Below are positions 1 through 48,222 of a DNA stretch of 64,000 nt, piece by piece. The stretch is from Anaerolineae bacterium (GTDB lineage: Bacteria; Chloroflexota; Anaerolineae; SpSt-313): the NCBI GenBank assembly GCA_034428955.1, contig DAOUGZ010000244.1:1607-65606 (forward strand). Reading direction: 5' to 3'. The notes below the pieces were generated by a model, which ran no database searches, was not told the DNA's origin, and was given only the letters and a program-made list of their open reading frames with translations. A program made the position numbers and the translations under genes. Every line of letters starts with the position of its first letter. Within the stretch, counting starts at the first letter, position 1.

Positions 1-1
1 C

Positions 2-259
2 GACGCATTGGTGATTGAGGCTACCTACCTCGACGTTGAGGCCGAGATGGCCGCGCAGTTCGGGCACATCACCGCCGCCCAGGCCGCTACACTGGCGCGA
101 GACGCCGACGTACGCTGCCTCTTCCTGGTACATATCTCCCGCCGTTACTCTGAGCGTGCGATAGCGGCGGAGGCCAGGGCCATTTTCCCGAACAGCATCG
201 TGCCGCGCGATCTGGACCACTACAAGATTCTGCGCGACGGCTGCGAGCAGATGGAGTAG
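2..259 (+). CDS. rnz: Ribonuclease Z/BN, C-terminal fragment (truncated by window start)
   Basis: Frame reads DALVIEATY...GHITAAQAA...LFLVHISRRY, matching the RNase Z C-terminal motifs (HEATF-like, GHST-like, L.H.S.RY). Confidence 0.85.
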   Translation, partial: DALVIEATYLDVEAEMAAQFGHITAAQAATLARDADVRCLFLVHISRRYSERAIAAEARAIFPNSIVPRDLDHYKILRDGCEQME

Positions 260-262
260 CCC

Positions 263-1591
263 TTGGACCTGCGCACACTGCTGAGCGAACTGGGGCGCCG
301 AGGCGAGTTGGCGGTTGTGCGCCGGCCTACGGACCCCCACCTCGAGATGGCGGCGGTAGTTGCTGCCCTCGACGGGCGGCCGGTGCTCTTTGAGGATCCA
401 CTGAGCTCCAACTATCGGGTGGCAGCCAATTTGCTGAGTCGGCGCGAGACCGTTGCGCTGGGCCTGAACACCGAGCCGGACCGTCTGCTGGGGCGCCTGG
501 TCGAGGCCTTTCGCGCTCCCTCCACCCCTGCACTGGTGGACAATCCGCCGTGTCAGGAGGTTGTGGAGACGGGGGTAGACCTCGAGACTTTGCCCATCCT
601 TACTCACGGGCCGCGCGATGTTGGCCCGTATGTGACTGCCGGCGTGCTGGTCGCCCACGATCCCAGTTGTGGCCCGAACCTAGCCTTCCATCGCCTGCTT
701 CGCCTGGACCGGCAGCGCTTCGCCGTGCGCCTGGTTGAGGGGCGGGGTACCCACACGGCGTGGATGAAGGCTGAGGGGGACTTGCCCGTCGCCGTCTGCC
801 TGGGCGCGCCACTGACGGTGCTTCTGGCCGGGGCAATGTCCCCGCCGCTGGGCCAGGATGAATTGGCCATCGCCCAATCCCTCGCTGCGACGCCTGTGGC
901 CCGCTGCCAGACGGTGCCCCTGCTCGTCCCTGCGGCGGCGGAGATCATACTGGAAGGCCGGCTGACCCACGACCTGGTGGAGGAGGGTCCCTTCATCGAC
1001 CTCACAGAGACCTATGACATCGTGCGCCGGCAGCCCGTTCTGGTGGTGGAACGCATCACGCACCGGCGCGACCCGATCTACCAGGCTCTGCTGCCGGGCG
1101 GGTTGGAGCACAAGCTGCTCATGGGCATGCCTCGCGAGCCTTCGATCTATGATGCTGTAGCGGAGGTCTGCCGGGTACGCCGGGTATACATGACGCCGGG
1201 GGGCACCTCGTGGCTCCATGCTGTGGTGCAGATCGAGAAGCAGCACCCGGATGACGGACGGCGAGCCATTGAGGCTGCTTTCCGCGGGCACGGGTCCCTC
1301 AAGCACGTCGTGGTGGTTGATGCCGATATCGATCCTTTCGATGCCCGTCAGGTCGAGTGGGCAATCGCTACGCGGGTGCAGGCCGACCGTGACCTGGTTG
1401 TCTGGCCCGGCCGGCCGGGCAGCTCTTTGGACCCCTCGGCGCTGCACGTGCCCGGCTGCAAGGCTCAGACGGCCAAGATGGGCATCGACGCCACGGTATG
1501 GTGGGACACGGACCACGGCCCGTCGGACCCTGAGCAGTACCGGCGTGTCGCTTACCCGCCCGTGGAACTCGCTGCCTATCTTGATGAGTGA
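263..1591 (+). CDS. UbiD-family prFMN decarboxylase, probable anhydromevalonate-phosphate decarboxylase (AMPD)
   Basis: UbiD motifs (PYVTAG, AEIILEG, EEGPFIDLTETYD, EHKLLMGMPREP, KHVVVVDADID..D...VEWAIATR, SSLDPS, AKMGIDAT). TTG start 3 nt after rnz stop. Adjacent to AcnX subunits and IPK. Confidence 0.85.
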   Translation: MDLRTLLSELGRRGELAVVRRPTDPHLEMAAVVAALDGRPVLFEDPLSSNYRVAANLLSRRETVALGLNTEPDRLLGRLVEAFRAPSTPALVDNPPCQEVVETGVDLETLPILTHGPRDVGPYVTAGVLVAHDPSCGPNLAFHRLLRLDRQRFAVRLVEGRGTHTAWMKAEGDLPVAVCLGAPLTVLLAGAMSPPLGQDELAIAQSLAATPVARCQTVPLLVPAAAEIILEGRLTHDLVEEGPFIDLTETYDIVRRQPVLVVERITHRRDPIYQALLPGGLEHKLLMGMPREPSIYDAVAEVCRVRRVYMTPGGTSWLHAVVQIEKQHPDDGRRAIEAAFRGHGSLKHVVVVDADIDPFDARQVEWAIATRVQADRDLVVWPGRPGSSLDPSALHVPGCKAQTAKMGIDATVWWDTDHGPSDPEQYRRVAYPPVELAAYLDE

Positions 1592-2861
1592 GGATCTCAC
1601 AGCTATGCCTGCAGATGACCTGGTGCTTGCTGCCGCCGAACTGGACGCGTTGGCTGGGGTGCACGGGGAGGGCACCCGGCTCGCGGCGCAACTCGTGACG
1701 GCACTGGGAAGAATCTATGGGGCGCGGGATCTGGTGCCCGTGGCCAGCGTGCAGGTAGCGGGTGTCAGTTATCGCAATCTGGGCCCCGCCGGCCTCGCCT
1801 TCCTGCGCGACTGGGCTGACCGCGGCGGGCGGACGTGCGTGCCGAGCTTGCTGAACCCGGCCGGGATGGACTTGCAGTGTTGGTGCGAGCACGGCATCCC
1901 CGAAGAGTTTGGCCGGCGGCAACTGGAGGTCATCGAAGCCTACAGGCGCCTGGGGGTGGAGGCGAGTTGCACCTGCACCCCCTATCTGGTGGGCAATGTG
2001 CCCCACTTTGGGGAACACGTGGCCTGGAGCGAGTCCTCAGCGGTGGCCTTTGCCAATAGCGTGTTGGGGGCGCGGACGAATCGCGAGGGTGGGCCAAGCG
2101 CCCTGGCGGCGGCGATTCTGGGCAAGACGGCGCGCTATGGCCTGCATCTTGATGAGGGGCGGGTACCTACGCTGACGGTCGACGTCACCTGCCCGCTCAG
2201 GTCGGTCGCCGACTTTGGTGCCCTCGGCTATCTGGTGGGGCGGCTGGTCGGCGACGGCGTACCTTTGCTGCGCTTGCTGGCGGGGCCGGAGCCTCTGCAT
2301 TTCGGCGATCTGCTCACTTCGGCATACCTGCCTCACCTGAAAGCTCTCGGTGCGGCGATGGCGGCCAGCGGGGCGGTGGCGCTCTACCATATTGAGGGGG
2401 TCACGCCGGAGGCTTGCCGGCGCCAGGATCCCATTGTGCCCGCAGCAGCGAGGGCCGAGGTGGCCGATCTGGGCCCCGGGTACGCAGCCCTGAACTCGGC
2501 CGGTAGCGAGATAGACTTGGTGAGCATCGGCTGCCCCCATGCGTCGCTGGCCGAGATTGCCCAGATAGCGGAACAGCTGCAGGAGCGGCGAGTGCGCGCT
2601 GCGCTTTGGGTGACCACGGCGCGAGCCACCCTCGAAGAGGCGCGCCGGCGCGGGCTGGCTCAGCGACTGGAGCGGGCCGGCGTGCGGTTGATGGCCGATA
2701 CCTGCCTGGTGGTGGCCCCGATGGCATACCTGGGCTTGCGGACGGTGGCCACCAATTCGGCCAAGTTGGCGACGTATGCGCCGGGCCACTGCGGGCTACA
2801 GACTCGCTTTGGCTCCCTCGCCAAGTGCATCGAAGCGGCCGTCACCGGGCGTTGGGCGTAG
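1584..2861 (+). CDS. Aconitase X catalytic (large) subunit, probable phosphomevalonate dehydratase large subunit (DUF521)
   Basis: AcnX motifs GVSYRNLG, LNPAGMD, CTCTPY, WSESSAVAFANSVLGARTNREGG, LYHIEGVTPE, IGCPH, DTCLVVAP, TNSAK (three Cys for an Fe-S cluster). ATG at 1584 overlaps the UbiD stop; alternative ATG at 1605. Confidence 0.9.
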   Translation: MSEDLTAMPADDLVLAAAELDALAGVHGEGTRLAAQLVTALGRIYGARDLVPVASVQVAGVSYRNLGPAGLAFLRDWADRGGRTCVPSLLNPAGMDLQCWCEHGIPEEFGRRQLEVIEAYRRLGVEASCTCTPYLVGNVPHFGEHVAWSESSAVAFANSVLGARTNREGGPSALAAAILGKTARYGLHLDEGRVPTLTVDVTCPLRSVADFGALGYLVGRLVGDGVPLLRLLAGPEPLHFGDLLTSAYLPHLKALGAAMAASGAVALYHIEGVTPEACRRQDPIVPAAARAEVADLGPGYAALNSAGSEIDLVSIGCPHASLAEIAQIAEQLQERRVRAALWVTTARATLEEARRRGLAQRLERAGVRLMADTCLVVAPMAYLGLRTVATNSAKLATYAPGHCGLQTRFGSLAKCIEAAVTGRWA

Positions 2862-2890
2862 CTGTGGACGGCAGGGGTGAGGTGGGTAGA

Positions 2891-3286
2891 TTGGCGACAG
2901 TTCTGCAGGGGCGTCTGATTCACCACGGGGTGGCCCGTGGGCAGGCGCTCGTCAGCGAGGAACCGATCAGTTTTCTGGGCGGAGTGGACCCGGAGACGGG
3001 AATCGTTGTGGACCCGCGCCATCCGTTGGCGGGTTGTGACATCAGCGGCCGTGTGCTTGTCTTTCCGATGGGGAAAGGGAGCACTGTGGGGTCCTACGTT
3101 CTGTATCAGTTGAGACACAATGGGCACGCGCCGGCGGCGCTGATCAATACCCGTTGCGAGGCGATTGTGGCCGTCGGCGCGATTATCTCCGATATCCCTG
3201 CTGTTGACCAGGTGGACATAACGGCAATAGCGTCGGGCGATTGGGTACGCGTTGAGGATGGAGGGCGCGTCGTTGTCGAGGGTTGA
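2891..3286 (+). CDS. Aconitase X swivel (small) subunit, probable phosphomevalonate dehydratase small subunit (DUF126)
   Basis: G.ALVSEEPISFLGGVDPETG...HPL.G..ISGRVLVFP.GKGSTVGSYVLY..., IVAVGAIISDIP. TTG start at 2891 after GAGGTGG. Confidence 0.9.
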   Translation: MATVLQGRLIHHGVARGQALVSEEPISFLGGVDPETGIVVDPRHPLAGCDISGRVLVFPMGKGSTVGSYVLYQLRHNGHAPAALINTRCEAIVAVGAIISDIPAVDQVDITAIASGDWVRVEDGGRVVVEG

Positions 3287-4085
3287 GTTCGTCTATCTCA
3301 AGCTCGGTGGATCCCTGATCACAGAAAAAACAAAGCGCGAAGCTGCGCGGCGCGACGTGCTCGCTCGCGTGGCCGGGGAGATAGCGCGTGCTCGAGCGGC
3401 GCAGCCCGGCCTGCGCCTGGTTCTGGGGCATGGCAGCGGCTCCTTTGGCCACTATATGGCTGAGGAGTACGGCGTACATCGGGGCGGCCTGGAGGATTGG
3501 TGGGGCTACGCTCAGACAGCCGCTGCAGCGGCACGGCTCAACAGGCTGGTTGTGGAGGCCTGCCTTGCAGCGGGCGTGCCAGCCGTCTCTCTGCAACCCT
3601 CGGCTTCGGCGCGGGCGCGGGGTGGCGAGTTGGTGGACCTGGTGACCTGGCCGATTGCCCAGCTTGCGGAGAGGGACATCGTGCCCGTCGTCTATGGCGA
3701 CGTGGCGCTCGACGAGGCGCAGGGCTGCAGCATCATCTCTACCGAGACCATCTTTGCCTATCTGGCGCTGCGTATCAGGCCACGGCGCATCCTGCTGGCC
3801 GGCGAAGTTGACGGCGTCTACACGGCAGACCCTCAACGTGAGCTCTCGGCCCAGCCCGTACCCGTGCTGACGCCGGAGACATGGGGCGAGGCCGAGCGGC
3901 AGTTAGCCGGTGCGCGTGGCGTGGACGTGACGGGCGGCATGCGCAGCAAAGTCCGCCAGATGCTGGACCTGATCGAGGATGTGCCGGATCTTGAGGTGTC
4001 CATCTTCTCGGGGCTGACGCCCGGGCGTGTAGAGCGTGCTCTGCGCGGCGAGCCGGGCGGGACACTGCTGCGGGCAAGGCGCTAA
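3273..4085 (+). CDS. ipk: Isopentenyl phosphate kinase (amino-acid-kinase fold)
   Basis: YLKLGGSLITEK, LGHGSGSFGH (IPK signature His), PVVYGDV, IISTE, GEVDGVY..DP, DVTGGM..KV. TTG at 3273 follows GGAGG (alternative ATG 3258) and overlaps the upstream stop. Confidence 0.9.
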   Translation: MSRVEFVYLKLGGSLITEKTKREAARRDVLARVAGEIARARAAQPGLRLVLGHGSGSFGHYMAEEYGVHRGGLEDWWGYAQTAAAAARLNRLVVEACLAAGVPAVSLQPSASARARGGELVDLVTWPIAQLAERDIVPVVYGDVALDEAQGCSIISTETIFAYLALRIRPRRILLAGEVDGVYTADPQRELSAQPVPVLTPETWGEAERQLAGARGVDVTGGMRSKVRQMLDLIEDVPDLEVSIFSGLTPGRVERALRGEPGGTLLRARR

Positions 4086-4165
4086 CGAAGCCAGGGCTTT
4101 TCCAGAGCTGACGAGGGTGACATAAGATTGGCTCTGAAGAGGGCGCGCTCGGACGCGAGAAAGCC

Positions 4166-4194
4166 TTGTCAGGTGATAGGTGTTCACGTATAAT
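4166..4194 (+). promoter_or_regulatory. sigma70-type promoter for rseP-tldD-pmbA
   Basis: TTGTCA (4166-4171), 17 nt, TATAAT (4189-4194), ~40 nt before the rseP ATG. Confidence 0.7.
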
Positions 4195-4235
4195 GTCCGA
4201 GTAGCTTGGTCAGAGAGCATGGGCGAGGGGGTATT

Positions 4236-5300
4236 ATGCCCATTACTATCCTTGCGTTCGTTTTGATTTTCAGCCTGGTCGTTTTCGTGCACGAGCTTGG
4301 GCACTTTTTGCTGGCCAAGTGGTCGGGCGCTCGTGTCGAGGAATTTGGTTTCGGCTATCCGCCTCGGCTGTTGCGCATCGGCAAGCGTGGCGATACCGAG
4401 TTCACCCTCAATGCTATTCCCATTGGCGGGTTTGTTCGTGTTACCGGCGACGACAACCCCACGGATCCCGGCAGCCTGGCGCAGCGGAGCCCTTGGGCCC
4501 GCGGTGCCTTCCTGATCGCCGGGCCGGCCATGAACGTGGTCCTGGCGGTAGTGCTCTTTGCCGCCAGCTTTGTGATTGGGGTCCAGATGCCCGTTGGCGG
4601 CCCTGGGGTGGGCGTCTACCAGGTGGCGGCAGATTCCCCTGCTGCCAGCGCGGGCCTGCAAGTCGGCGACACCATCTTGCAGATTGACGGCGAGCCGGTC
4701 GACTCGGTTGAAGAGCTGCAGACGCTGATCGATGCTCGGCTGGGCCAGCCGGTGACCCTCCAGGTGCGCCGCGATGGAAGAGCCCTCGCGGAGCCCCTGG
4801 TGTTGGTTCCCCGGCCGGACCCTCCGGAGGGCCAGGGAGCTATGGGGGTAGCCATTGATGCCCCCCTGGGTAAGGTTTCTTACCCCGTTTGGGAGGCTCT
4901 CTGGCTGGGCCTCCAGCAGGCAGGCTGGACGGTGTGGATGATCATCAGCGGGTTGGTCGCCATGGTGCGCGGGCTGATGCCCGCGGACCTTACGGGCCCC
5001 ATCGGCATCGCGCAGATGACGGCCCAGGTGGCCAAGTCCGGCGTGGCGCAGCTCCTGGAGTGGACCGCGTTCCTGAGCGTCAACCTGTTCATCCTGAACT
5101 TGCTGCCGCTGCCTGCGTTGGATGGCGGCCGGCTGATCTTTGTGGTTCTGGAGGTTCTGCGCGGCGGCCGTCGTGTCGACCCGCAGAAGGAAGGGCTCGT
5201 ACACCTGGCCGGAATTGTCGTGCTGCTCGGCCTGTTCCTGGTCATCTCTTACTTTGACGTCATGCGAGTGATCCGGGGGGGGCCACTTCCCGGCCAGTGA
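4236..5300 (+). CDS. rseP: RIP metalloprotease RseP (M50, one PDZ domain)
   Basis: VHELGH, FGFG..P, IPIGGFV, AGPAMN, PDZ region (SPAASAGLQVGDTIL.IDG), NLLPLPALDGG. Confidence 0.95.
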   Translation: MPITILAFVLIFSLVVFVHELGHFLLAKWSGARVEEFGFGYPPRLLRIGKRGDTEFTLNAIPIGGFVRVTGDDNPTDPGSLAQRSPWARGAFLIAGPAMNVVLAVVLFAASFVIGVQMPVGGPGVGVYQVAADSPAASAGLQVGDTILQIDGEPVDSVEELQTLIDARLGQPVTLQVRRDGRALAEPLVLVPRPDPPEGQGAMGVAIDAPLGKVSYPVWEALWLGLQQAGWTVWMIISGLVAMVRGLMPADLTGPIGIAQMTAQVAKSGVAQLLEWTAFLSVNLFILNLLPLPALDGGRLIFVVLEVLRGGRRVDPQKEGLVHLAGIVVLLGLFLVISYFDVMRVIRGGPLPGQ

Positions 5301-9216: not shown

Positions 9217-9504
9217 ATGGCGGCAGCAGAAAGGGTTCGGCTGAGGGCTGTGGTGCATGGCATCGTGCAGGGCGTCAGCTTTCGCTATTACACACAGCGC
9301 GAGGCGCGGCGTTTGGGCTTGCGGGGGTACGTCCGCAACTGCAGCGATGGAACGGTTGAGGTAGTCGCTGAGGGGCCACGACGCGCCGTAGACGAACTCT
9401 ACTCATGGCTGCACTCCGGCCCGCCATCGGCCGAGGTGTGGAATGTGGATGCCATCTGGCATGCTCCCAATGGGAGCGAGGTCTCCTTCGAGGTACGGTA
9501 CTGA
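9217..9504 (+). CDS. acyP: Acylphosphatase
   Basis: VHGIVQGVSFRYYT, GYVRNCSDGTVEVVAEG, GP..A.V. Confidence 0.95.
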   Translation: MAAAERVRLRAVVHGIVQGVSFRYYTQREARRLGLRGYVRNCSDGTVEVVAEGPRRAVDELYSWLHSGPPSAEVWNVDAIWHAPNGSEVSFEVRY

Positions 9505-10730
9505 TGCAGCATACCGCTGTACGCGCCCACCCGGAACGCACGGCTTGGGTGGTGGTTCTGATTGCTTTCGCCATCTTTTGTTTGCTGGTCGTGTGCGTGC
9601 CGCTGGGCGCACGCCACCTGCTCCTATACTCGACAAAAGGGCATCCGGCGACCCTGCGGACCCTCGAAGGCACGGTTGTAGTCGATAACCCCGCTACCGG
9701 CAACGAGTATTCGGTGACCAAGGATCAGACACGTACGCTGGGCGAAGGCACTGTTATCAGCCTCGACGACAATTCGCGAGCCGTGCTGGACTTTTTCGAT
9801 GGTAGTTCCCTCCATCTTCTGCCGGGCAGCCGAGTGTCGATTGAGCGCATGCAGGGGCGGCGCTTTGGTCTCGGTCTCAGTCCGAACACGATCTGGTTGC
9901 GTATCGTCAGCGGGCGTGTCAAAGTCGTCACCTCGGGCACGCCCGATGCGCCGGGCCTCGATTTCCGCCTCCGTTGCTTGCTTCTCGACACCGAGTTGGC
10001 CATCACGACGGATGGGGTGTACGGCGTCGAGGTTGAGCCTGATGGAGCGGAAGTCTTTGCGAACCGCGGCAGCGCAGTTGTCTCTGCCAACGGCAAGAGT
10101 GTTCAACTCGTCGCCTCGGAACGCGCGACCATCGAGGCCGGCCATCAGCCCATAGGGCCGCTGTTCGACGCCCGCGAGATGGTCGACAACGCCGATTTTG
10201 ACGATGGGCTGGCCGGATGGGAAGTCTACAACGATCAGGGGAACGATGGCGGCGATGTGCCCGGCATGGCCGTGCAGGTCGTGGATGGCGGGCTGCCGGC
10301 AGTCCGCTTCTTCCGCACCGGCAGCAATCGCAATCACTGCGAGACGGTTCTCTCTCAGACCATCGGCCGCGAACTCCCGGACCCGGTTTCCTCGCTGGAG
10401 GTTCGTGCCAGCTTCAAGCTGGCCAATCAGAGCCTGTCCGGCGGCGGCGTTCTCGGTTCCGAGTATCCTCTGATGATCCGGCTTCTCTATCGAGACGTGT
10501 ACGGCAGCGAGAACACGTGGGTGCAGGGATTCTACTACGAAAATCCCCTGGGCAACCCCGTCGCCTCATCGGCCAAGTGGTATCCGCGGGGCTCCTGGGA
10601 GCTGTTCGAGTCCGGCAATCTGCTGGAGACGCTGGACCCCAAGCCGTTTGAGATTATCTCAATCCAGGTCTATGCATCCGGCTGGGATTACGAGAGCATG
10701 ATCCGCTGGATCAGTGTGGCCGTCAAATAG
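9504..10730 (+). CDS. Membrane-anchored protein with FecR-like beta domain and C-terminal jelly-roll/CBM-like domain
   Basis: N-terminal TM helix (WVVVLIAFAIFCLLVVCVPLG); FecR-like segment (EGTVI.LD..S.A.L.FFDGS.L.L.PGS.V.I; L.I.SG.V.V); later NADFDDGL.GW start typical of CBM-like domains. ATG overlaps the acyP stop. Confidence 0.6.
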   Translation: MQHTAVRAHPERTAWVVVLIAFAIFCLLVVCVPLGARHLLLYSTKGHPATLRTLEGTVVVDNPATGNEYSVTKDQTRTLGEGTVISLDDNSRAVLDFFDGSSLHLLPGSRVSIERMQGRRFGLGLSPNTIWLRIVSGRVKVVTSGTPDAPGLDFRLRCLLLDTELAITTDGVYGVEVEPDGAEVFANRGSAVVSANGKSVQLVASERATIEAGHQPIGPLFDAREMVDNADFDDGLAGWEVYNDQGNDGGDVPGMAVQVVDGGLPAVRFFRTGSNRNHCETVLSQTIGRELPDPVSSLEVRASFKLANQSLSGGGVLGSEYPLMIRLLYRDVYGSENTWVQGFYYENPLGNPVASSAKWYPRGSWELFESGNLLETLDPKPFEIISIQVYASGWDYESMIRWISVAVK

Positions 10731-11281: not shown

Positions 11282-12052
11282 CTACAGACTGTACTCCAGG
11301 GCGGACTGCCCGGCTTCAGTAGAGATTGTGGCCACTACGTGGACGTAGGGCGCGATGCTCGAGTTCTCGAGCTTGCGCTTGAGCAACTCGTCGAGTTGGA
11401 ATATCCCCGCCGGATTGCTCATCAGCACTTCGACCTGGATCGGCGTGGTCTCGCCGGCGCTGAGGTTCACATGCTCAATGGCCGCTGCGGAGACGGCATG
11501 GATGTTGATGGCCCCCGCCTCGAAAGGTATCCGTGACCGTCCCTTGCTCATGTCCAGTGCATCGGCTACCTTGACAATGCCCGCCTCAATGGTGAGGCAG
11601 GGAACATCGACGTCGTGAGCGACTACGGCGTGCAGAGTCTCGGCCAACACGATGGCGGCTTGCGGGGGAGGATAGACCTGCGGCAGCCACTCTCGCAGCT
11701 TGGCCATGGCCAGCGGCACACTATAGGCCTCATGGTTCTCGCGATGGACGGCCATGCCGATGTCGTGGAGGCACGAGGCCAACACTACGATAACCTCGGC
11801 ATCGTCTGTGGTCAGCCCATAGTTCTTGACCACGCTCATCTCCACCCCGGCCTGATTCAGCAGGCGGAGCAGCCTGAGCGCAATGTTGGACACGATGCGT
11901 ATATGCACTTGGCCGTGGTCGCTCATGCCCAGGCGATCCACGGCGTTGATGTTGGCGCTCTTCCAGAGTTGGTGCAACTCGGCGTCGTTGTTAATCAGCT
12001 CGACAATGCGCTGCAGAGTGGGGTTGTGGCGAGTGGGAATGGTTATTGGCAC
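11282..12052 (-). CDS. HD-domain phosphohydrolase
   Basis: SDHG.VH..IV, LHDIG...HR..H, HAVVAHD, VKVADALDM.KGRSRIP. Confidence 0.85.
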   Translation of the reverse strand: MPITIPTRHNPTLQRIVELINNDAELHQLWKSANINAVDRLGMSDHGQVHIRIVSNIALRLLRLLNQAGVEMSVVKNYGLTTDDAEVIVVLASCLHDIGMAVHRENHEAYSVPLAMAKLREWLPQVYPPPQAAIVLAETLHAVVAHDVDVPCLTIEAGIVKVADALDMSKGRSRIPFEAGAINIHAVSAAAIEHVNLSAGETTPIQVEVLMSNPAGIFQLDELLKRKLENSSIAPYVHVVATISTEAGQSALEYSL

Positions 12053-18279: not shown

Positions 18280-19620
18280 CTAGCGGATAGTATACCCAAA
18301 TAGGTTGGATGGCAGCTGGAAGCCGGCCAACTGGATCTTTTCGCTGAACTTGGGCCGTACGCCGGTGGGGGTGAGTTGCCCCAGCAGGCGCCCGTCACGC
18401 ATACCGGCGTCCTTGAAGAGGAAGAGATCCTGCAGCAGGACGGTATCGCCTTCCATACCGCACAGTTCGGCGACCTGGACGATACGCCGCGAGCCGTCGC
18501 GCATGCGCTGTACGTGGACGACCAGGTCCAGGGCGGAGGCAATCTGCTCGCGGATGGCCCGTAACGGCAGCTCCATGCCGGCCATGAGCACCATCGTCTC
18601 GAGGCGGCGCAGGGTGTCGCGTGCGCCGTTCGAGTGGGCCGTCGTCAGCGAGCCGTCGTGGCCAGTGTTCATGGCCTGCAGCATGTCCAGCGCTTCGCCA
18701 CCGCGCACCTCGCCGACGACAATGCGGTCCGGGCGCATACGCAGGGCGTTGATGACGAGCTGGCGAATGCTGATCTGGCCCTTCCCCTCCAGGTTGGGTG
18801 GTCGCGCCTCGAGCGTTACGACGTGTTCCTGCTGCAACTGCAACTCGGCTGCATCCTCGATGGTCACGATGCGCTCATCGGCGGGGATGAACGAGGAAAA
18901 GACGCCCAGGAGAGTCGTCTTGCCTGCGCCGGTCCCCCCCGAGACGACGATGTTCAGGCGACTCCTGACACAGGATTTCATGAACTCCATAAACTCGGCC
19001 GAGCAGGCTCCAAGCTTGACGAGGTCGTCTGCGCCGAGGGGCACGCGGGCGAACTTGCGGATGGTGAGTACCGGCCCCACCAGGGATAGTGGGGGGATGA
19101 TGGCGTTCACGCGCGAACCATCCGGTAGACGGGCATCGACCATCGGCGATGCCTCGTCAATACGACGGCCCAGCGGGGCGACAATGCGCTCGATGATGCG
19201 CATGAGGTGGGCCGTGTCATCGAAGCGGAGTGGGCTGCGCTCGATCTTGCCCTTGCGCTCGACGTATATCCGGTCCGGCCCGTTCACCATGATCTCGCTG
19301 ACCGTATCATCGTGGAGGAGCGCATCGATCGGCCCGTAGCCCAGGATTTCCGACACGACGCGTTCGAACAACTGCTCGCGCTCGCTGCGCCCCAGGACCA
19401 TGCCGACTTCGCGGATGATGTCGCCGTAGACGTCGGCGATGCGGCGACGAATCGATGCCTGGTCGGTAATATCGCCCTGGGTACGCAGGTCAGCGACCAC
19501 CCGGTCCCGGACCCGCGTGACCAACTGGCGCTGTGCGTCCTCGCGTGTGGTCACGTTGCTGCCGGTTGGCCGCGTTTCCACTCGATCTGTTTGGCTGTTG
19601 CGCGTGGGCCTCATTAGCAT
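18280..19620 (-). CDS. cpaF: Tad/Flp pilus assembly ATPase CpaF/TadA
   Basis: GYGPI..LL.D..VSEIMVNG, PMVDARLPDGSRVNA, Walker A SGGTGAGKTT, TIEDAAEL, LRMRPDRIVVGEVRGGE, AMNTGHDGS. Confidence 0.95.
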   Translation of the reverse strand: MLMRPTRNSQTDRVETRPTGSNVTTREDAQRQLVTRVRDRVVADLRTQGDITDQASIRRRIADVYGDIIREVGMVLGRSEREQLFERVVSEILGYGPIDALLHDDTVSEIMVNGPDRIYVERKGKIERSPLRFDDTAHLMRIIERIVAPLGRRIDEASPMVDARLPDGSRVNAIIPPLSLVGPVLTIRKFARVPLGADDLVKLGACSAEFMEFMKSCVRSRLNIVVSGGTGAGKTTLLGVFSSFIPADERIVTIEDAAELQLQQEHVVTLEARPPNLEGKGQISIRQLVINALRMRPDRIVVGEVRGGEALDMLQAMNTGHDGSLTTAHSNGARDTLRRLETMVLMAGMELPLRAIREQIASALDLVVHVQRMRDGSRRIVQVAELCGMEGDTVLLQDLFLFKDAGMRDGRLLGQLTPTGVRPKFSEKIQLAGFQLPSNLFGYTIR

Positions 19621-19721
19621 GATTCTTGTCCCTCTGAGTGTGGTGTCGTCTCTGGCTGAGGCTCGTTCCGAATGCTGCGCCGCATGGGGCAAAGCGCACC
19701 AATCGTAATCTTTGCGGTGCG

Positions 19722-20111
19722 CTACCGGTCGCTCAGTAATGCAACCAGAATCAGGAGCAGATAGAGCACTCCGTTGGCTACAAGCAGTACCCGGATAGCC
19801 GGCACCTGTAGCAAATCTCGCAGGCGCGACAAGTCCAGGCGGAATCCGGCCTGAGGCCGTGTCCAGTTCTCCTCTGCGGAGAGGCGTAGTTGCAGCGTTT
19901 GGCGGACTCTGGCGATCTCGGCGGAACCCGGATGCCTTCGCTCGAACGCCTGCAGGGCGGCTGCGGCCTCCGACCAGCGGCCCTGCTGCATCAGGGCCTG
20001 GATTTCGTCGAGCCTGGGATCCCGTTCCGCACGCGCCGCCCGCGGAAGCTTTTGCACATTGCTACCACGCAAGGGGGCCTCGCTTGCTCTGTCATTTCGC
20101 ACCGTGTCCAC
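19722..20111 (-). CDS. Small TPR-like protein with C-terminal TM helix
   Basis: Helical hairpin (LDEIQALMQQGRWSEAAAALQAFERRHPGS) plus hydrophobic C-terminus; lies inside the tad operon, 8 nt after the tadC stop. Confidence 0.6.
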   Translation of the reverse strand: MDTVRNDRASEAPLRGSNVQKLPRAARAERDPRLDEIQALMQQGRWSEAAAALQAFERRHPGSAEIARVRQTLQLRLSAEENWTRPQAGFRLDLSRLRDLLQVPAIRVLLVANGVLYLLLILVALLSDR

Positions 20112-20119
20112 TATGGGCT

Positions 20120-21043
20120 CTAGATCGCGCCGAACGCTTCTATGATGGAGGGGACGGCCGGCCCGATCACAACAGCGAACGTGGCTGGCATGATGAAGAA
20201 CACCATCGGGATGAGCATCTTGAGAGGCGCTCCCCGGGCCGCCTCTTGCGCCTTCTGGCGCCGGCGTATTCGCATCTGGTTGGACTGGGTATGAAGCGTA
20301 TCGGAAATGCTAAAGCCCAGTTGCTCTGCCTGCAGCAACACAGCTACCAGCGCGGACAACTCGGCGACGCCGGTACGGTACACCAAACTACGCATGGCTT
20401 CGCGCCAAGTCGCACCGAGGCCGATCTCTACCACCACCCGCCGGAACTCGTAGGCCAGGGCATTATTCCAACTGTCGCCTATACGTTTAAATGCGCTCTC
20501 GATTCCCAGGCCCGCATCAACGCAGACGGTGAGCATATCGAGGGCATCTGCCAGGGCCAGACCGATCTCTTTCTGGCGTGCCTTCATTTTCCGGCGTAGC
20601 CAGTAGACAGGCAACTCCGAGAACAAGATGGCCCCTGCCAGTCCGGCGAGCAGTGAGCGAGCGACCGAGCCGGAGGCGATCGCCAGAATCAGGCACAGTA
20701 TGGCCGTGCCCAATACTGCGACCAATACCCGCAGCCCCAAAAAGTCGAGCGGCTCGAGGCCCATGGGCGAACCGGCCATCAGCAGTTGCTGGCGCAGCTT
20801 TTCCATGTTCCGCCCTGGCGATGCACCGCCCAGGCGCCGCAGGAACCCCCGCAGGGCTGGGCGGATCACGCGTTGGGCGAAAGGCAGCTCTAGCTCCAGC
20901 GTGGAAGCCAGGAGGTGTTGAGAGACGGCGTTCTGTAGTCGCTGGCTTGAGAGTTGCTCGACGCGCTGAACGTCGAACCAGACATAGAATGCGCCTACGG
21001 CGAGTGCCGCCATCCCCGCGGCGAGAACGGCTATCGCTATCAC
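20120..21043 (-). CDS. tadC: Tad pilus inner-membrane platform TadC
   Basis: T2SS-F domain: LADALDMLTVCVDAGL..E.A, EFRRVV.EI.LG...REA, QAEQLG.SI...L..QS..MR..RRQKA.E.A. Confidence 0.92.
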   Translation of the reverse strand: MIAIAVLAAGMAALAVGAFYVWFDVQRVEQLSSQRLQNAVSQHLLASTLELELPFAQRVIRPALRGFLRRLGGASPGRNMEKLRQQLLMAGSPMGLEPLDFLGLRVLVAVLGTAILCLILAIASGSVARSLLAGLAGAILFSELPVYWLRRKMKARQKEIGLALADALDMLTVCVDAGLGIESAFKRIGDSWNNALAYEFRRVVVEIGLGATWREAMRSLVYRTGVAELSALVAVLLQAEQLGFSISDTLHTQSNQMRIRRRQKAQEAARGAPLKMLIPMVFFIMPATFAVVIGPAVPSIIEAFGAI

Positions 21044-21061
21044 CTGTCTACTCCCATTCGT

Positions 21062-22048
21062 CTAGACCTCGATGCGTGTCATGCGCTGAGTGATAAGGAA
21101 GCCGATCAACTCGGAAGTGAGGGCGCCCGCTGGGATGATGCGCACCCAACCGGGCTCGAACATGCGCATCATCCATTCTGGGTTGATTAGCGAAAGCCCG
21201 ATGCCCAGCACGATGGGCAGGCCGACAAGCATGTAGCTGGTCAGGCGCTGCTGCGTCGTGAGGACGCGAATCTCGCCCTGCAGTTGGATGCGCTCCCGAA
21301 TGGTCTCGGCTATCTTTTCCAGCACGAGTGAGAGGTTGCCGCCTACCTCGTGACTGACGTTGACCGCCGTCACTACCAGTTGCAGGTCATCGTTCTCCAT
21401 GCGCTTGACCAGGTTGTTCAGCGCTTCTGCCTGAGACAGGCCAAAACCGATCTCTCGCAGAACGCGCATGAACTCTTCCGAAGCCGGTGGGGGCAGTTCC
21501 CTGCTTACCATATCTAGGGCAGTGGGAAGGGCATGACCACCCTTGAGTGACCCGACGACCAAGGCCAGGACATCAGTGAGTTGGTCATGGAAGGCTTTGA
21601 TCCGTTTGCCCCTCTTGCGCTGTACCAGGAAAAAGGGAATTGCCAGCCCGACGATAACGCCTGCAAACAAGGAGAGTACATAGCCCGTCATCAAGTATCC
21701 AACCGCGCCGCATGCGATCCCCGCCGATATCTCGATGATGACAAACTCGGGCACGGTCGTGTGGACGTTCGCTTGAGCTAGTAGAAGCGCCAGGCGCTGG
21801 GCCGTTCCCTGTCCGCTGAAGAGGCGATCCATGAGGCCGAGTATGGCAGCGAACCCGCCACTTCGCTTGCGTTCCGTCTCGGCGCGCTCTTCCTCGGAGC
21901 GCGTATACATCGACACACGGGCTGTCATGTCATCGGAGCGTTCAACGACCGTGTACACGCCGAGGAAGAAGAACACGATGGCCAACATGCTGATGAGCGC
22001 GGTGATGAGTGCGGTGCCCAACACTATCCTCCCGTCTTGTGGTTGCAA
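21062..22048 (-). CDS. tadB: Tad pilus inner-membrane platform TadB
   Basis: F..QL.D.L.L....LK.GH.L..AL, P.P.SEEF.RV..EI..G, EVGGNL..VL..IA.TIRER..L..EIR.LT.Q.R. Confidence 0.92.
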   Translation of the reverse strand: MQPQDGRIVLGTALITALISMLAIVFFFLGVYTVVERSDDMTARVSMYTRSEEERAETERKRSGGFAAILGLMDRLFSGQGTAQRLALLLAQANVHTTVPEFVIIEISAGIACGAVGYLMTGYVLSLFAGVIVGLAIPFFLVQRKRGKRIKAFHDQLTDVLALVVGSLKGGHALPTALDMVSRELPPPASEEFMRVLREIGFGLSQAEALNNLVKRMENDDLQLVVTAVNVSHEVGGNLSLVLEKIAETIRERIQLQGEIRVLTTQQRLTSYMLVGLPIVLGIGLSLINPEWMMRMFEPGWVRIIPAGALTSELIGFLITQRMTRIEV

Positions 22049-22078
22049 CGGGCGTAGAGAGCGCAGCCGGAAGGTTCG

Positions 22079-23257
22079 CTACTGCTGCTGGATGACGGTG
22101 ACAAGGCTTTTTGCCAGACCGACCAGGTGACGGCTGACCCCACTGTGCTTGTGGCTCTCAACCACGGGCACGCCCCGATTGATGCTATAGGTGACCAGTT
22201 TGACGTCATCGGGTATGGCCTCCTGCGCAGCGGCGCCGAGAGCGTTTTCGATGTCGCGCCGGCCAAGGCCTCCGCGCAAGGGCGAGCGGTTCAGAACCAG
22301 AAGGATGCGCTCCCGCGGCAAGCCCGCCTGCCGCGATTGTTCCACGAACACCCTGGCCCCGCGGAGTGAAGTGATCTCGGGGGTGATCACCAAGAGCACG
22401 CGGTCAGCGACGCTCATTACGGCTGTGGTCTCGTCGTCGAGCAGCGCGCCTGCATCAACAAGGATTATGTCTCGCATGCGGCGAAGGGCGAGAAGTACCT
22501 TGCGTATTCCCTCTGCGCTGATTGTAGTATCAATGTCCTGGAGAAGAAGCGCCTCGATGCCGGAGACATGATGTGTTAGCAGTGCCTCAAAGTCGGGGCG
22601 CTCCAACTCGTCAAGCCTAGGCAGGAGGTGGCCGACATTGGCACCGGACTGCAGATTGAGCATGATATCGAGGGTGCCGGTTGGCAATGCTGCGTCCACA
22701 ACCGCAACGCTGCGGCGAGCTTCCCGGCGAAGAGCAACGGCCAGATTGGTCGTCACCATGCTCGCGCCCACGCCGCCCTTGCTGCCCACGACGGCGATGA
22801 CAAAGCCCGCCTTGTCCTTACGCAGGTCAAGGGCTGCCCCTAACCGTGCGATGAGGTCCTGGGCATCAGCCGGCTTGACCAAATAGTCCGTAGCGCCGGC
22901 CTTGAGACAGGCGACGCGCTCGCTGACGCCTGTGCTGGAACTCAGGATGATGATGGGAGTATCGGCAGTGCCGCTCTGCTGGCGCAACTGGCGGGTCACT
23001 TCGATCCCGCTCATGTCGGAGAGATGGAGTTCCAGGATGATGGCGTCGGGTGCCTCAAGCCGCGCCTTGGATAAGGCATCGGCTGCCGTTCTCCCGCTGA
23101 CGACCTCCCATCCCTGAGCACGCAGGACGCTGCGGAGCATGGCCACAGCACTGGGATCGCGGTCGACGACCAGGATCCGGGTTCGGTAGCCGGGCGTCTC
23201 GGAGCCCTTGACCAGGCGCACGTGAGGGGTACCTGGCGGTGTTGTTTCTGCGCTCAT
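22079..23257 (-). CDS. cpaE: CpaE/TadZ: atypical receiver domain plus MinD-like ATPase
   Basis: N-terminal REC (ILVVDRD, PDAIILELHL, DYLVKP), then GSKGGVGAS..TTNLA, LVITPEITSLR, VLNR, INRGVP. Confidence 0.85.
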   Translation of the reverse strand: MSAETTPPGTPHVRLVKGSETPGYRTRILVVDRDPSAVAMLRSVLRAQGWEVVSGRTAADALSKARLEAPDAIILELHLSDMSGIEVTRQLRQQSGTADTPIIILSSSTGVSERVACLKAGATDYLVKPADAQDLIARLGAALDLRKDKAGFVIAVVGSKGGVGASMVTTNLAVALRREARRSVAVVDAALPTGTLDIMLNLQSGANVGHLLPRLDELERPDFEALLTHHVSGIEALLLQDIDTTISAEGIRKVLLALRRMRDIILVDAGALLDDETTAVMSVADRVLLVITPEITSLRGARVFVEQSRQAGLPRERILLVLNRSPLRGGLGRRDIENALGAAAQEAIPDDVKLVTYSINRGVPVVESHKHSGVSRHLVGLAKSLVTVIQQQ

Positions 23258-24048
23258 TCTTCTTCCTTCACTTGCCATCGAATATTGAGGCGCTGCAAGA
23301 GATACTCACCGTCGATCGGTACGACCTCGTACTGACCCTGGGCTGCCGGGCTCCGGAGAGCCAGGTCCATGGCTGCACCTGAGTCCTGGAAGTACTTGAG
23401 CAGCAGGGCATCCTGAGGGGGGACCGCCAGGAGGATGGCTCGCGGCGCCCCTTGGCCGCCCGATGGCGGCGCGCTGGCACTGCCCTCGGGTTGCGCCCCT
23501 TCACCGTACACCACGGCAGCCACGACCTGATCCTGCAGTAGCGTGAACGTGTTCATGCCCGTCCAAATGTCGGGCTTGGCTTTTTCGAAATCAAAGGTGT
23601 ACAGGATATCGATGTGGTCGCCCGGCCTGATGATGCCGGTGCTGGACAGCAAATCGAACGTGGGGATGGCGACGAGGATTCTGCTGGGGTCCATGACAAA
23701 GGCAGCGCGGGGCCCTACATAGTCCGGCTCTATCAGCCGTCTCTGCAGGACTATCTCGCCCCTGGCGATGTCGGCCGTGGTCAACATGCCGACAATGGAG
23801 ATGGGGTCAGCGTAGGAACCTTCAGGCACCATCTCGGGCGGCACGTCTCGCACTTCCAGGTCGTCCGGCCCAATGACCGTATGTAATGGAATATCGCGGG
23901 CCGCGACGACGGCCGGAATGTGTGCGGGTTCCTCGCTCTCCTCCGGCGGCTGTGACATGCGAAGGACAGTGACAAAGACCAGGGCGCCGGCCATGAAGGA
24001 TAGGAGAAGACCTGCAGCAAACCAGATACAGCCTCTTCGACGGTTCAA
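23254..24048 (-). CDS. cpaB: Flp pilus assembly protein CpaB/RcpC (SAF domain)
   Basis: N-terminal TM; SAF motif VVAARDIP..TVI..DDL; IRPGDHIDIL; T.LQ...V; LLAVPPQDA..L, LALR. TTG start after GAGAAGAGGG. Confidence 0.88.
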   Translation of the reverse strand: MNRRRGCIWFAAGLLLSFMAGALVFVTVLRMSQPPEESEEPAHIPAVVAARDIPLHTVIGPDDLEVRDVPPEMVPEGSYADPISIVGMLTTADIARGEIVLQRRLIEPDYVGPRAAFVMDPSRILVAIPTFDLLSSTGIIRPGDHIDILYTFDFEKAKPDIWTGMNTFTLLQDQVVAAVVYGEGAQPEGSASAPPSGGQGAPRAILLAVPPQDALLLKYFQDSGAAMDLALRSPAAQGQYEVVPIDGEYLLQRLNIRWQVKEEE

Positions 24049-24283
24049 TGTAGCCCTCTTCTCTCCGGGAACGATGTCGCGGACTGGCAGAGAATGCCAA
24101 CACGGCGAGAGCCGAGGCCAGATACTTGACCCCTGGCACTGCATATGTCGTGTCTGGCAGGTAGCATCCTGCGTCTGCATGGGTTTGATGGACGCAAGAG
24201 GCAACAGGGCTGTCACTTCTTGCGCCGGAAAAGAGGGGTTCCGGTCTTGCCTTACCCCTGCCTACTAGAGGGGGTAGAGGGCA

Positions 24284-24413: not shown

Positions 24414-25334
24414 CTAGCGCGAGCGAGATCGGGCAATCAGCAAGGCGCCAAGGGCTATGGACATCAGCTTGGTCTCGTGCGGGTCGGAGCGTGAGGAGAC
24501 GATCAGCGGGGATTGGCCGCCTACGACTACGCCTGCCATCTGCCCGCCAGCAAAGTAGGTGATGGCCTTGGCCAGCATGTTGCCCGCTTCTACATCGGGC
24601 GCTATGAGGATTTCGGCTTGGCCGGCGACGGGCGAGTTGATCCCTTTGATGGATGAGGACTCGGCTGAGATAGCATTGTCGAGGGCCAGAGGGCCGTCGA
24701 CAATGCCGCCTTTGATCTGCCCGCGGTCGGCCATCTTGGCCAAGTTGGCGGCATCCATCGTTGTGGGTATCTTGGGATTCACCATCTCGGTGGCGGCCAG
24801 GACGGCGACCTTGGGCTTCTCTATGCCGAGGGCGTGAGCTACCTCGATGGCGTTCTGTACGATCTCAACCTTCTGGGTGATGTCGGGGGCGACTACAACC
24901 CCCGCATCAGTGACGAGCACCAGCCGGTCAAAGCCGGGGATCTCAAAGACCCCTACATGGCTGAACAGGCGACCGGTGCGCAGGCCGGTCGCCTTGTTCA
25001 AGGCGGCACGCAGGAAATCGCCCGTATCAATCTGCCCCTTCATGGCGACGTCCGCCTGCCCCAGGCGTACCAGTTCCATGACCCTGGCTGCTGCCTGCTT
25101 TGTATTGGGCTCGTCGATCACCTTCGCCTCGCCGAGGTCGATGCCGGCGCATTCGGCTAGCGAGTGTATCTTGGTGGCGTCGCCCACCAGGATGCAGTCG
25201 GCGATCTGCTCTGCCCTGGCGGCCTGGGCTGCCTGCAGCACCTCCTTTTCGTGGGCTGCGGCTACGGCTACGGTGATGTAGCCCGCCTCGCGCGCGGCCT
25301 GAAGCATCTTGGGGAATGATGTGATCTTTAGCAA
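24414..25334 (-). CDS. ptb: Phosphate butyryl/acetyltransferase (PTA/PTB family)
   Basis: VAVAAA....VL.A, MKGQIDT..FL.A.L, LFSHV.VFE.PG.D.L..VTDAG, PKVAVLAA.E.VN, DGPLALDNAIS, P..EAGN.L.K, SRSD. Confidence 0.88.
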   Translation of the reverse strand: MLKITSFPKMLQAAREAGYITVAVAAAHEKEVLQAAQAARAEQIADCILVGDATKIHSLAECAGIDLGEAKVIDEPNTKQAAARVMELVRLGQADVAMKGQIDTGDFLRAALNKATGLRTGRLFSHVGVFEIPGFDRLVLVTDAGVVVAPDITQKVEIVQNAIEVAHALGIEKPKVAVLAATEMVNPKIPTTMDAANLAKMADRGQIKGGIVDGPLALDNAISAESSSIKGINSPVAGQAEILIAPDVEAGNMLAKAITYFAGGQMAGVVVGGQSPLIVSSRSDPHETKLMSIALGALLIARSRSR

Positions 25335-29762: not shown

Positions 29763-29776
29763 TGGTCAGCTCCCAA

Positions 29777-30226: not shown

Positions 30227-30248
30227 GGATCCCAACCTACCTATCACT

Positions 30249-30596: not shown

Positions 30597-30601
30597 CTTG
30601 C

Positions 30602-32068: not shown

Positions 32069-32187
32069 GAACTATTTCCCTCAGGTCAGTTGCATATTCC
32101 TACCACGTAATGCGACTGCGCAACCCTTCTCATAGCTGTGCCTGCTGCTCCAGGTGGCACTAGGCATTACGCAGCACATAGTACGCA

Positions 32188-46866: not shown

Positions 46867-46899
46867 CCCTAGCTCCTTTCGGATCCATTGTGCCCCGGG

Positions 46900-48168: not shown

Positions 48169-48222
48169 CGTGCAGTTCCCTTTCTGACCATAGTGGGGGT
48201 GCGGCCCCCCATCGCTGGTGGG

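Follow-up and report, generated by a model that had tools for sequence, protein, structure and literature searches.

A putative archaeal-type mevalonate pathway operon behind rnz in an uncultured Chloroflexota bacterium

Archaeal phosphomevalonate dehydratase (PMDh), represented by the enzymes of T. kodakarensis (TK1249/TK1248; PDB 7CNR, 7CNS) and A. pernix, is composed of two subunits. PMDh is defined by its Fe-S ligand sites, with Cys at sites A, 1 and B and none at site C (PMC10040528, PMC8184944), and the residues contacting mevalonate 5-phosphate (MVA5P) have been listed (PMC8184944). The two archaeal enzymes studied are 38% and 44% identical to each other (PMC10040528). In the phylum Chloroflexota, the haloarchaea-type pathway of Roseiflexus and Anaerolinea comprises mevalonate kinase (MVK), phosphomevalonate decarboxylase (PMD) and isopentenyl phosphate kinase (IPK), and a single ATP-consuming decarboxylase of the GHMP family converts MVA5P into isopentenyl phosphate (PMC11052028, PMC9254496). 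The archaeal mevalonate pathway itself has been reported experimentally in Ca. Promineifilum breve by Kanno et al. (2024, Appl Environ Microbiol), as cited in PMC13001223 and PMC12547664. This precedent had been named in a sequence-only reading of the DNA studied here, and the two citing papers show it to be genuine.

The DNA analyzed (the window) is a stretch of 64,000 nucleotides from an uncultured member of the Chloroflexota, of the Anaerolineae type. It opens with the 3' end of rnz (RNase Z; 2..259, + strand), truncated by the window edge; bases 8-259 code for the C-terminus and match positions 226-302 of the 302 in the TIGR02651 RNase_Z profile (E 2.8e-18). The sequence-only reading had placed four tightly coupled genes directly behind rnz, and all four were found where it put them, on the + strand. 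They code for a UbiD-family decarboxylase, the putative anhydromevalonate phosphate decarboxylase (AMPD; 263..1591, 442 aa, TTG start), the AcnX large subunit, putatively that of PMDh (1584..2861, ATG 1584 with an alternative start at ATG 1605), the AcnX small (swivel) subunit, again putatively of PMDh (2864..3286), and IPK (3258..4085). The small subunit starts at GTG 2864 or, more likely, at TTG 2891 behind GAGGTGG, and IPK either at ATG 3258 or at TTG 3273 behind GGAGGG. The rnz stop and the UbiD start are separated by 3 nt, the end of the UbiD gene overlaps the large-subunit ATG 1584 by 8 nt, the gap between the two AcnX genes is at most 30 nt, and the 3' end of the small-subunit gene overlaps the IPK start by 14-29 nt. 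Neither promoter-like nor terminator-like sites were found on the + strand in positions 1-4165. The sole + strand promoter-like match in 1-5000, where shuffled sequence gives a mean of 0.5, is TTGTCA-17-TATAAT at 4166..4194 (+ strand, 11 of 12 consensus matches). It lies within the 120-nt gap ahead of rseP, the next gene downstream of the operon, and likely marks the 3' boundary of the transcription unit. We propose from this layout that rnz and the four genes are co-transcribed.

In our view the four genes, co-transcribed with rnz, very probably code for the set of three enzymes by which the archaeal (Aeropyrum-type) mevalonate pathway is defined beyond the MVK step. According to this scheme, PMDh, a heterodimeric [4Fe-4S] AcnX of type IIb, would convert (R)-mevalonate 5-phosphate into trans-anhydromevalonate 5-phosphate (tAHMP). 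AMPD, a UbiD-family enzyme dependent on prFMN, would decarboxylate tAHMP to isopentenyl phosphate, which IPK would phosphorylate to IPP. MVK, the upper pathway, the prFMN synthase UbiX and IPP isomerase would be coded elsewhere in the genome. The locus had been described as the 'lower half' of the pathway; this holds for the PMDh, AMPD and IPK genes but not for MVK, which is missing from both the operon and the window. Pfam searches of all other called genes found no HMG-CoA synthase (HMGS), HMG-CoA reductase (HMGR), MVK, IDI, UbiX or acetoacetyl-CoA thiolase in the 64-kb window, matching the earlier statement that UbiX, MVK and HMG-CoA synthase/reductase lie outside it; the same searches of the window found no MEP pathway genes. 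The sequence data show the identity of the genes, the PMDh residue signature, the membership of IPK in its equivalog family, the clade into which the UbiD protein falls and the conservation of the neighbourhoods, whereas the actual substrates of the enzymes, and their role as the cell's working IPP route, are inferred.

The AcnX large subunit matches PF04412 at 4.9e-141, and the small subunit matches PF01989 at 8.3e-35 and NF003046 with 171.6 bits (cut-off 163). The subunits are encoded by two separate adjacent genes, as in type IIb. With T. kodakarensis PMDh-L (7cnr_A) the large subunit shares 46.3% identity at E 7.5e-96, compared with 4e-67 for the match to cis-3-hydroxyproline dehydratase, and the small subunit is 57.3% identical to TK1248 (7cnr_B). 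Both values exceed the 38% and 44% found between the two archaeal enzymes that have been studied. The three Cys motifs noticed in the sequence-only reading (CTC, GCPH and DTC) are present, in register with Cys110, Cys283 and Cys342, the Fe-S ligands of T. kodakarensis PMDh at sites A, 1 (GCPH) and B; the site-C column is occupied by Val. All 14 landmark residues of the large subunit are identical to those of the T. kodakarensis enzyme. The MVA5P contacts are identical throughout, both in the large subunit (A47, G48, V49, S50, N53, N79, E129, S130, S131, K361, Y365) and in the small one (L27, S62, T63, V64). By these residues, the assignment of the window AcnX to the archaeal PMDh type (IIb) is well supported. 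It thus has the subunit composition, the Cys triad and every MVA5P contact in common with the T. kodakarensis enzyme, the difference being that the putative PMDh of the window sits in a bacterial host.

Cis-3-hydroxyproline dehydratase was also considered as an identity for AcnX and rejected. Asp203, Ile206, Trp35 and Thr72 are changed to Ala, Ser, Leu and Val, respectively, Cys510 is replaced, the motif C-L-V stands instead of Cys-x-Cys with the site-C Cys, and the NF051439 score of 322 bits stays below the cut-off of 700.

The identity of the fourth operon gene as IPK is confirmed at the level of curated profiles, since the protein clears the cut-off of the NCBIfam equivalog NF040647 IPPK_Arch (178.1 bits vs 120). 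Among solved structures it matches M. thermautotrophicus IPK best (3ll9, 1.8e-43). The GHGSGSFGH motif on which the original assignment relied is present and aligns with HGAGSFGH of 3ll9, with the catalytic His in G-S-F-G-H.

The UbiD protein has a three-domain architecture (Pfam UbiD_N, UbiD and UbiD_C) and scores 352 bits with TIGR00148 (cut-off 245). Its NLAFHR and EEGPFID segments align with NLGIYR and EGPYGD of E. coli UbiD and fit the N-x4-R and E-G-P-[FY]-x-[DE] motifs, which we take to be catalytic, as in Fdc1 and UbiD. In a neighbour-joining tree whose internal branches are very short and whose tips are mostly unnamed, computed without support values and without the experimentally characterised AMPD sequences of A. 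pernix and M. mazei, the protein falls inside one Chloroflexota clade. The sisters and nearest outgroups of this clade in the tree are proteins of DPANN, Marsarchaeota, Methanosarcinales, Methanobacteriota and Thermococci, and the nearest named outgroups are archaeal homologs 44-50% identical to the window protein. The Marsarchaeota relative is labelled anhydromevalonate phosphate decarboxylase by UniRef, and a homolog with 61% identity (P0096) is given the same name by IMG. Archaeal AMPD, as exemplified by the Marsarchaeota protein, matches the window UbiD in length and domain architecture and has the N-x4-R and E-G-P-F-x-D motifs, whereas the Chloroflexota proteins form a clade of their own.

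The nearest solved structure, however, is that of HmfF, a furandicarboxylate decarboxylase (6h6x, E 4e-72, full length). The window protein also retains the specificity His of HmfF (H296/297; PDB 6H6X, 6H6V), and we found in it no sequence landmark separating AMPD from HmfF. The substrate assignment therefore comes entirely from context and clade. In contrast to HmfF, there are no hmf genes near the window UbiD, and since the neighbours of its clade are AcnX, MVK and IPK, the clade can be tied to the mevalonate pathway. On these grounds of gene context and clade, we regard the protein as a putative AMPD. Many of its homologs carry the IMG label '2,5-furandicarboxylate decarboxylase 1', which is probably an annotation carry-over.

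Relatives of the window UbiD occur in at least 566 stretches of species-representative genomes, and the best 80 (52-72% identity), nearly all from Chloroflexota, were taken for the analysis of loci. Among these best 80 of at least 566, AcnX lies downstream of UbiD in 27, MVK is present in 20 (directly upstream of UbiD in 13; TIGR00549 255 bits vs 163) and IPK in six. Considering those of the best 80 with adequate flanks, 28 of 47 contain AcnX and/or MVK. About half of the 80 best loci have no pathway partner within 10 kb, and UbiX was not found in their flanks. The order rnz-UbiD-AcnXL-AcnXS-IPK-rseP is identical in six of the best 80; the rnz-UbiD junction recurs in L001, L006, L012, L021, L041 and L058. 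The route had been thought rare, a view that is contradicted by the almost exclusively Chloroflexota origin of the best 80 of at least 566 relatives and by the six identical operons. Instead, the loci indicate that an archaeal-type route is widespread in MAGs of Anaerolineae, Caldilineales and Ardenticatenales and common in the phylum.

That many related UbiD loci have no AcnX nearby could also mean that the AcnX/UbiD pair acts on some other hydroxy-acid and unsaturated acid, in a dehydration-decarboxylation that has nothing to do with mevalonate, for instance in catabolism or secondary metabolism, with IPK a mere neighbour. UbiD enzymes are functionally diverse, HmfF being the nearest solved one here, and AcnX subclasses IIc-IIf have no known function (PMC8184944). 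We nevertheless find such a substrate quite improbable: every MVA5P-binding and Fe-S residue of PMDh is retained in the window AcnX, and, among the best 80 of at least 566 loci, six lineages show translational coupling between IPK and AcnX, and MVK stands beside the UbiD clade in 20 loci. Moreover, no hmf-type or aromatic-catabolic genes are located nearby, either in the window or in the flanks of these 80 loci.

For each of the three enzymes, the closest homologs that have been characterised come from archaea, as would be expected if an archaeal fragment had been joined to a bacterial contig during assembly or binning. The probability of such an artefact appears negligible, because the G+C (0.666) and GC3 (0.76-0.78) of the operon equal those of its neighbours, the four genes overlap one another and abut a bacterial rnz, and the flanking genes (RseP, SecA, LspA, Fpg, Tad pilus) are bacterial. 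In addition, six independent assemblies from Chloroflexota show the same junctions, at identities of 51-81%. The matching composition, together with the coupling to rnz kept in relatives, also bears out the suggestion that the operon is stably integrated.

If the operon does encode the archaeal-type route, it may still not be the sole or main source of IPP, operating beside a PMD step or the MEP pathway as an ATP-saving or oxygen-dependent alternative. Some Chloroflexota, Anaerolinea thermophila among them, are documented to have the haloarchaea-type combination of PMD and IPK (PMC9254496, PMC11052028), and PMDh is oxygen-sensitive (PMC10040528, PMC12547664). MVK, IPK and isopentenyl phosphate are common to both pathways; in the window route, an Fe-S dehydratase and a prFMN decarboxylase would replace the PMD step. 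We consider coexistence possible but unlikely. Neither the window nor the ±10-kb flanks of the best 80 of at least 566 related loci yielded a PMD/DMD-type GHMP gene; the sole recurrent GHMP kinase in these flanks is MVK. In the 2024 work of Kanno et al., PMDh and AMPD are reportedly missing in close relatives relying on PMD, a pattern that suggests replacement rather than coexistence.

As far as it is described in the papers citing it, Ca. Promineifilum breve has both the phylum and the enzyme set (PMDh, AMPD and IPK) in common with the window, so that the archaeal-type route was already known in 2024 from one related bacterium and the window operon would add another case. Our comparison is based on loci from MAGs of the genus, P. 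breve's own sequence not being among them. In two Promineifilum MAGs (L037 and L065), AMPD is 56% identical to that of the window and belongs to the same Chloroflexota clade. However, the loci of Promineifilum, Ardenticatenaceae and Leptovillus have the large and small AcnX subunits fused, in that order, into a single ORF of ~590 aa (583-669), which is 33-37% identical to the window large subunit and differs at three contact positions (S47, T53, N131). In these loci, one to three genes, mostly for a transporter, stress-protein or channel, separate UbiD from AcnX, and IPK is not adjacent, whereas the window has a two-gene archaeal AcnX within a contiguous rnz-AMPD-PMDhL-PMDhS-IPK operon. The distinction between a two-subunit dehydratase and a fused, divergent Promineifilum-type form, as predicted from these genes, is new here.

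More tentatively, the archaeal-type route could be the standard IPP pathway of much of Chloroflexota (Anaerolineae, Caldilineales, Ardenticatenales and Thermoflexales); we place this at slightly less than an even chance. AMPD would have been gained once, its nearest relatives being DPANN-like archaea, and would now work with two dehydratases, the two-subunit archaeal-like window type and the fused divergent Promineifilum type. If this is true, the window-type operon would stand nearest to the cassette as it was first transferred, and the pathway could no longer serve as an archaeal marker. The active site predicted for the window dehydratase, within its compact rnz-AMPD-PMDh-IPK operon, is almost indistinguishable from the archaeal type. 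Relative to T. kodakarensis PMDh, the large subunit carries two insertions, one of 9 residues following LNPAG and one of 11 residues around residue 235.

Gene calls and profile matches bore out the four-gene plus-strand operon that the sequence-only reading had placed directly behind rnz, at 263-4085. The 3' end of rnz (8-259, +) covers the final 77 positions of TIGR02651, the RNase Z model. It is followed by a UbiD-family gene (263-1591, +) with UbiD_N, UbiD and UbiD_C domains (TIGR00148, 352 bits vs 245), and by genes for the AcnX large subunit (AcnXL; 1584-2861, +; PF04412, 4.9e-141), the AcnX small subunit (AcnXS; 2864-3286, +; PF01989, 8.3e-35; NF003046, 171.6 vs 163) and isopentenyl phosphate kinase (IPK; 3258-4085, +; PF00696; IPPK_Arch, 178.1 vs 120). 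The junctions are tight. Only 3 nt separate the rnz stop from the TTG start of the UbiD gene, and the AcnXL and UbiD genes share 8 nt when AcnXL is read from ATG 1584 (ATG 1605 could also serve as its start). AcnXS starts 2-30 nt past the AcnXL stop, the better Shine-Dalgarno sequence (GAGGTGG) being found at TTG 2891, and its end is overlapped by 14-29 nt by the IPK gene, where GGAGGG precedes TTG 3273. No promoter-like or terminator-like site was found on the plus strand at 1-4165, and the 120-nt gap ahead of rseP holds a sigma-70-like site (11/12; 4166-4194). Based on the junctions, the lack of an internal promoter or terminator and the site before rseP, we therefore consider rnz-UbiD-AcnXL-AcnXS-IPK as the unit. 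The G+C content of the operon (0.666; GC3 0.76-0.78) is the same as in the remainder of the window. On this composition, together with the same junctions in independent assemblies, misassembly was rejected.

[quoted passage not shown] For both AcnX subunits the best solved-structure match is the type II enzyme of T. kodakarensis (7cnr_A for AcnXL, E 7.5e-96; 7cnr_B for AcnXS, E 7.8e-39). Identity to the Thermococcus PMDh is 46.3% for AcnXL and 57.3% for AcnXS, so the window AcnX is nearer to it than the two studied archaeal PMDh are to each other (38% and 44%; PMC10040528). Three Cys residues (sites A, 1 and B) hold the cluster of PMDh, which lacks the site-C Cys seen in type I enzymes. In the large subunit, the contacts to mevalonate 5-phosphate are A47, G48, V49, S50, N53, N79, E129, S130, S131, K361 and Y365; the small subunit contributes L27, S62, T63 and V64, and type I AcnX has Asp203, Ile206, Trp35 and Thr72 instead (PMC8184944, PMC10040528). 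In a MAFFT alignment the window AcnX equals the Thermococcus enzyme at every PMDh ligand and contact column, and the site-C column holds Val. The CTC, GCPH and DTC motifs noticed earlier in AcnXL proved to be exactly the three Fe-S ligands. The alternative raised at that time, grouping with hydroxyproline dehydratases, finds no support at the residue level, and the NCBIfam cis-3-Hyp dehydratase model gives only 322 bits where 700 are required. Judged from its sequence, the window AcnX is of the mevalonate type (PMDh).

Among solved structures, the UbiD protein is closest to the 2,5-furandicarboxylate decarboxylase HmfF (6h6x, 4e-72), with E. coli UbiD next, and it carries the N-x4-R and E-G-P-F-x-D motifs. 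Furan specificity in HmfF is set by His H297 (PMC7976604). We considered this position as a discriminator between AMPD and HmfF and rejected it, since the His is conserved in the window protein. No residue separating the two was found; therefore, the AMPD assignment rests on relatives and gene context. In a search of 5.8 billion proteins, the clusters sharing 59% identity or more numbered over 120. All those with a name come from MAGs of Anaerolineae, Caldilineae or Chloroflexi, and one bears the IMG name 'anhydromevalonate phosphate decarboxylase'. Among 1.84 billion cluster representatives, 609 proteins were found at E <= 1e-30.

We also compiled the neighborhoods of the UbiD gene, taking one genome per species. 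At least 566 UbiD relatives were detected, and the best 80 of these (52-72% identity, almost all from Chloroflexota) were examined by tblastn and ORF clustering. The route, earlier regarded as rare, thus appears to be common in Chloroflexota MAGs instead. AcnX lies downstream of the UbiD gene in 27 of the best 80 loci (21/50 when only loci with 6 kb or more downstream are counted). A GHMP kinase occurs in 20/80 and is mevalonate kinase (MVK) according to the curated equivalog TIGR00549 (255 bits vs 163); in 13/80 MVK is directly upstream of the UbiD gene. IPK is present in 6/80. Where both flanks were long enough (47 of these loci), AcnX and/or MVK is present in 28. A UbiD clade that recurs across the phylum beside PMDh-type AcnX, MVK or IPK is very likely AMPD. 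Many clade members (P0021, P0034, P0038, P0125, P0128, P0134 and others) are named '2,5-furandicarboxylate decarboxylase 1' by IMG, which, because of the AcnX, MVK and IPK neighbors, looks like systematic mis-annotation of AMPD as HmfF.

Several layouts can be distinguished. Type A, rnz-UbiD-AcnXL-AcnXS-IPK-rseP, is found in the window and in loci L001, L006, L012, L021, L041 and L058; among the best 80, L001 and L012 are closest to the window (72% UbiD identity). Type A' is UbiD-AcnXL-AcnXS without IPK (other Anaerolineales, 'Chloroflexaceae' and Thermoflexales MAGs). The UbiD-AcnXL-AcnXS core is also carried by a complete relative, CP070811.1 (L046). In type B, 1-3 genes, mostly for an Na+/H+ exchanger, Usp and MscS, stand between UbiD and AcnX (Promineifilum sp., Ca. 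Promineofilum glycogenicum, Ardenticatenaceae, Leptovillus). Type C is MVK-UbiD-LigT-SLOG with no AcnX within 10 kb (Caldilineales, Amarolinea). The recurrent gene of ~200 aa downstream of UbiD in Caldilineales-type loci was considered as UbiX and turned out to encode a LigT phosphoesterase, the next gene encoding a SLOG protein.

In type B, the large and small parts of AcnX are fused, in that order, into one ORF of about 590 aa; the type I AcnX fusion has the reversed order. The fused ORFs, with exchanger, Usp and MscS genes as neighbors in Promineifilum/Ardenticatenaceae/Leptovillus-type genomes, are those of L037:1614-3488, L065:13439-15235, L050, L053-L055, L069, L077, L078 and L080. The type B protein is just 33-37% identical to the window AcnXL; the Cys triad is kept, and three contact positions differ. 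Such divergence argues that the window dehydratase does not belong to the lineage seen in the MAG loci of Promineifilum, the genus in which the bacterial pathway was reportedly demonstrated. As far as residues can tell, it is the classical archaeal form, unlike the lineage in that genus. A complete type B layout (FtsZ-UbiD-exchanger-Usp-...-fused AcnX) is also present in L078 (DASRZI010000501.1), labelled Candidatus Zixiibacteriota, which is probably a binning or labelling error rather than a Zixibacteria pathway.

A neighbor-joining tree was built from the window UbiD protein with 77 locus proteins and 124 full-length representatives. In it the Chloroflexota proteins all fall into a single clade, a placement that is indicative only, because internal branches are short and carry no support values. 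The sister of this clade is a pair of DPANN MAG proteins, from Iainarchaeum (L066) and Diapherotrites (P0122). Further out, the first named groups are an Elusimicrobiota MAG, Marsarchaeota (UniRef name AMPD), Methanosarcinales, Methanobacteriota and Thermococci. The DPANN proteins (L066:9998-11299 of Candidatus Iainarchaeum MAG JAGGYF010000003.1, and P0122) are 54% and 50% identical to that of the window. With 41% G+C and an XPD-type helicase nearby, L066 does not resemble a mis-binned Chloroflexota contig. The pair may point to the donor lineage of the Chloroflexota AMPD, or to a recipient.

A 2018 study reportedly described the archaeal pathway (PMDh, AMPD, IPK) in A. pernix. Its occurrence in the bacterium Ca. 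Promineifilum breve, pointed out earlier, agrees with Kanno et al. 2024, as that work is cited in PMC13001223 and PMC12547664, and a 2026 review credits some Chloroflexota with an archaeal-type pathway (PMC13001223). The literature searched contained no earlier report of the route being widespread in Anaerolineae, and the pathway's original describers may have seen part of this. As far as we found, the published bacterial record is one uncultured species. The window and the best 80 relatives suggest that bacterial versions are numerous and have at least two dehydratase designs. The new angle is modest: the dehydratase occurs in two forms, AMPD apparently forms just one clade, and the operon coupled to rnz is conserved. 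Known pathway chemistry is unchanged. Each IPP costs one ATP less by the archaeal pathway than by the other mevalonate routes, and work is under way to engineer it for isoprenoid production (PMC12547664, PMC13198327). In the window type, the archaeal active site is preserved at every residue within a bacterial background that is mesophile-like and high in G+C, offering a set of PMDh and AMPD candidates of non-hyperthermophile origin. Two evolutionary questions are touched as well: how one mevalonate variant took the place of another (phosphomevalonate decarboxylase, PMD, or PMDh plus AMPD) in a single phylum, and which archaeal lineage was the donor.

About 50 further window genes were called and scanned against Pfam. 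Their products are of the usual bacterial kind (RseP, TldD/PmbA, Fpg, a Tad pilus cluster, SecA, ThyX, IleRS, LspA, RluD, an Na+-translocating biotin decarboxylase cluster and others), and the host is a bacterium. The scan revealed no MVK, HMG-CoA synthase/reductase, IDI, UbiX, PMD/DMD or MEP-pathway gene, in agreement with the earlier remark that UbiX, MVK and HMG-CoA synthase/reductase are missing from the window. The description of the operon as the 'lower half' of the pathway holds for the PMDh, AMPD and IPK genes and needs qualifying for the whole, because MVK would have to lie elsewhere, outside both operon and window. An HMGL-like domain at 30602-32068, considered as HMG-CoA lyase/synthase, is instead part of an oxaloacetate/methylmalonyl-CoA decarboxylase alpha subunit. 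The corresponding four-gene Na+-translocating biotin-dependent decarboxylase cluster (28629-33738, -) comprises OAD beta, a biotin carrier, this OadA-like alpha subunit and a 12S-type carboxyltransferase.

Further observations concern other parts of the window. ORFs of 441 aa (9405-10730, +) and 256 aa (11282-12052, -), well formed by codon-position G+C, flank a DUF4416 gene and have no Pfam match at 1e-5. The Tad/Flp-type pilus assembly cluster (18280-24216, -) encodes a CpaF-like ATPase, TadB, TadC, a response-regulator-ParA fusion (CpaE-like) and CpaB with SAF and RcpC domains, and a phosphate acetyl/butyryl-transferase gene lies at 24414-25334. An Rfam search of the window detected neither a T-box nor any other family at gathering score; the sole RNA gene detected, tRNA-Arg (CCG) (57221-57295, -), sits in an ORF-poor stretch just upstream of ileS (57895-61086). 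A sugar-utilization group at 45844-50841, immediately preceded by DegT aminotransferase and DUF362 genes, includes two family-4 glycoside hydrolases, a YdjC-family deacetylase and a BadF/BcrA-type ATPase that is N-acetylglucosamine-kinase-like.
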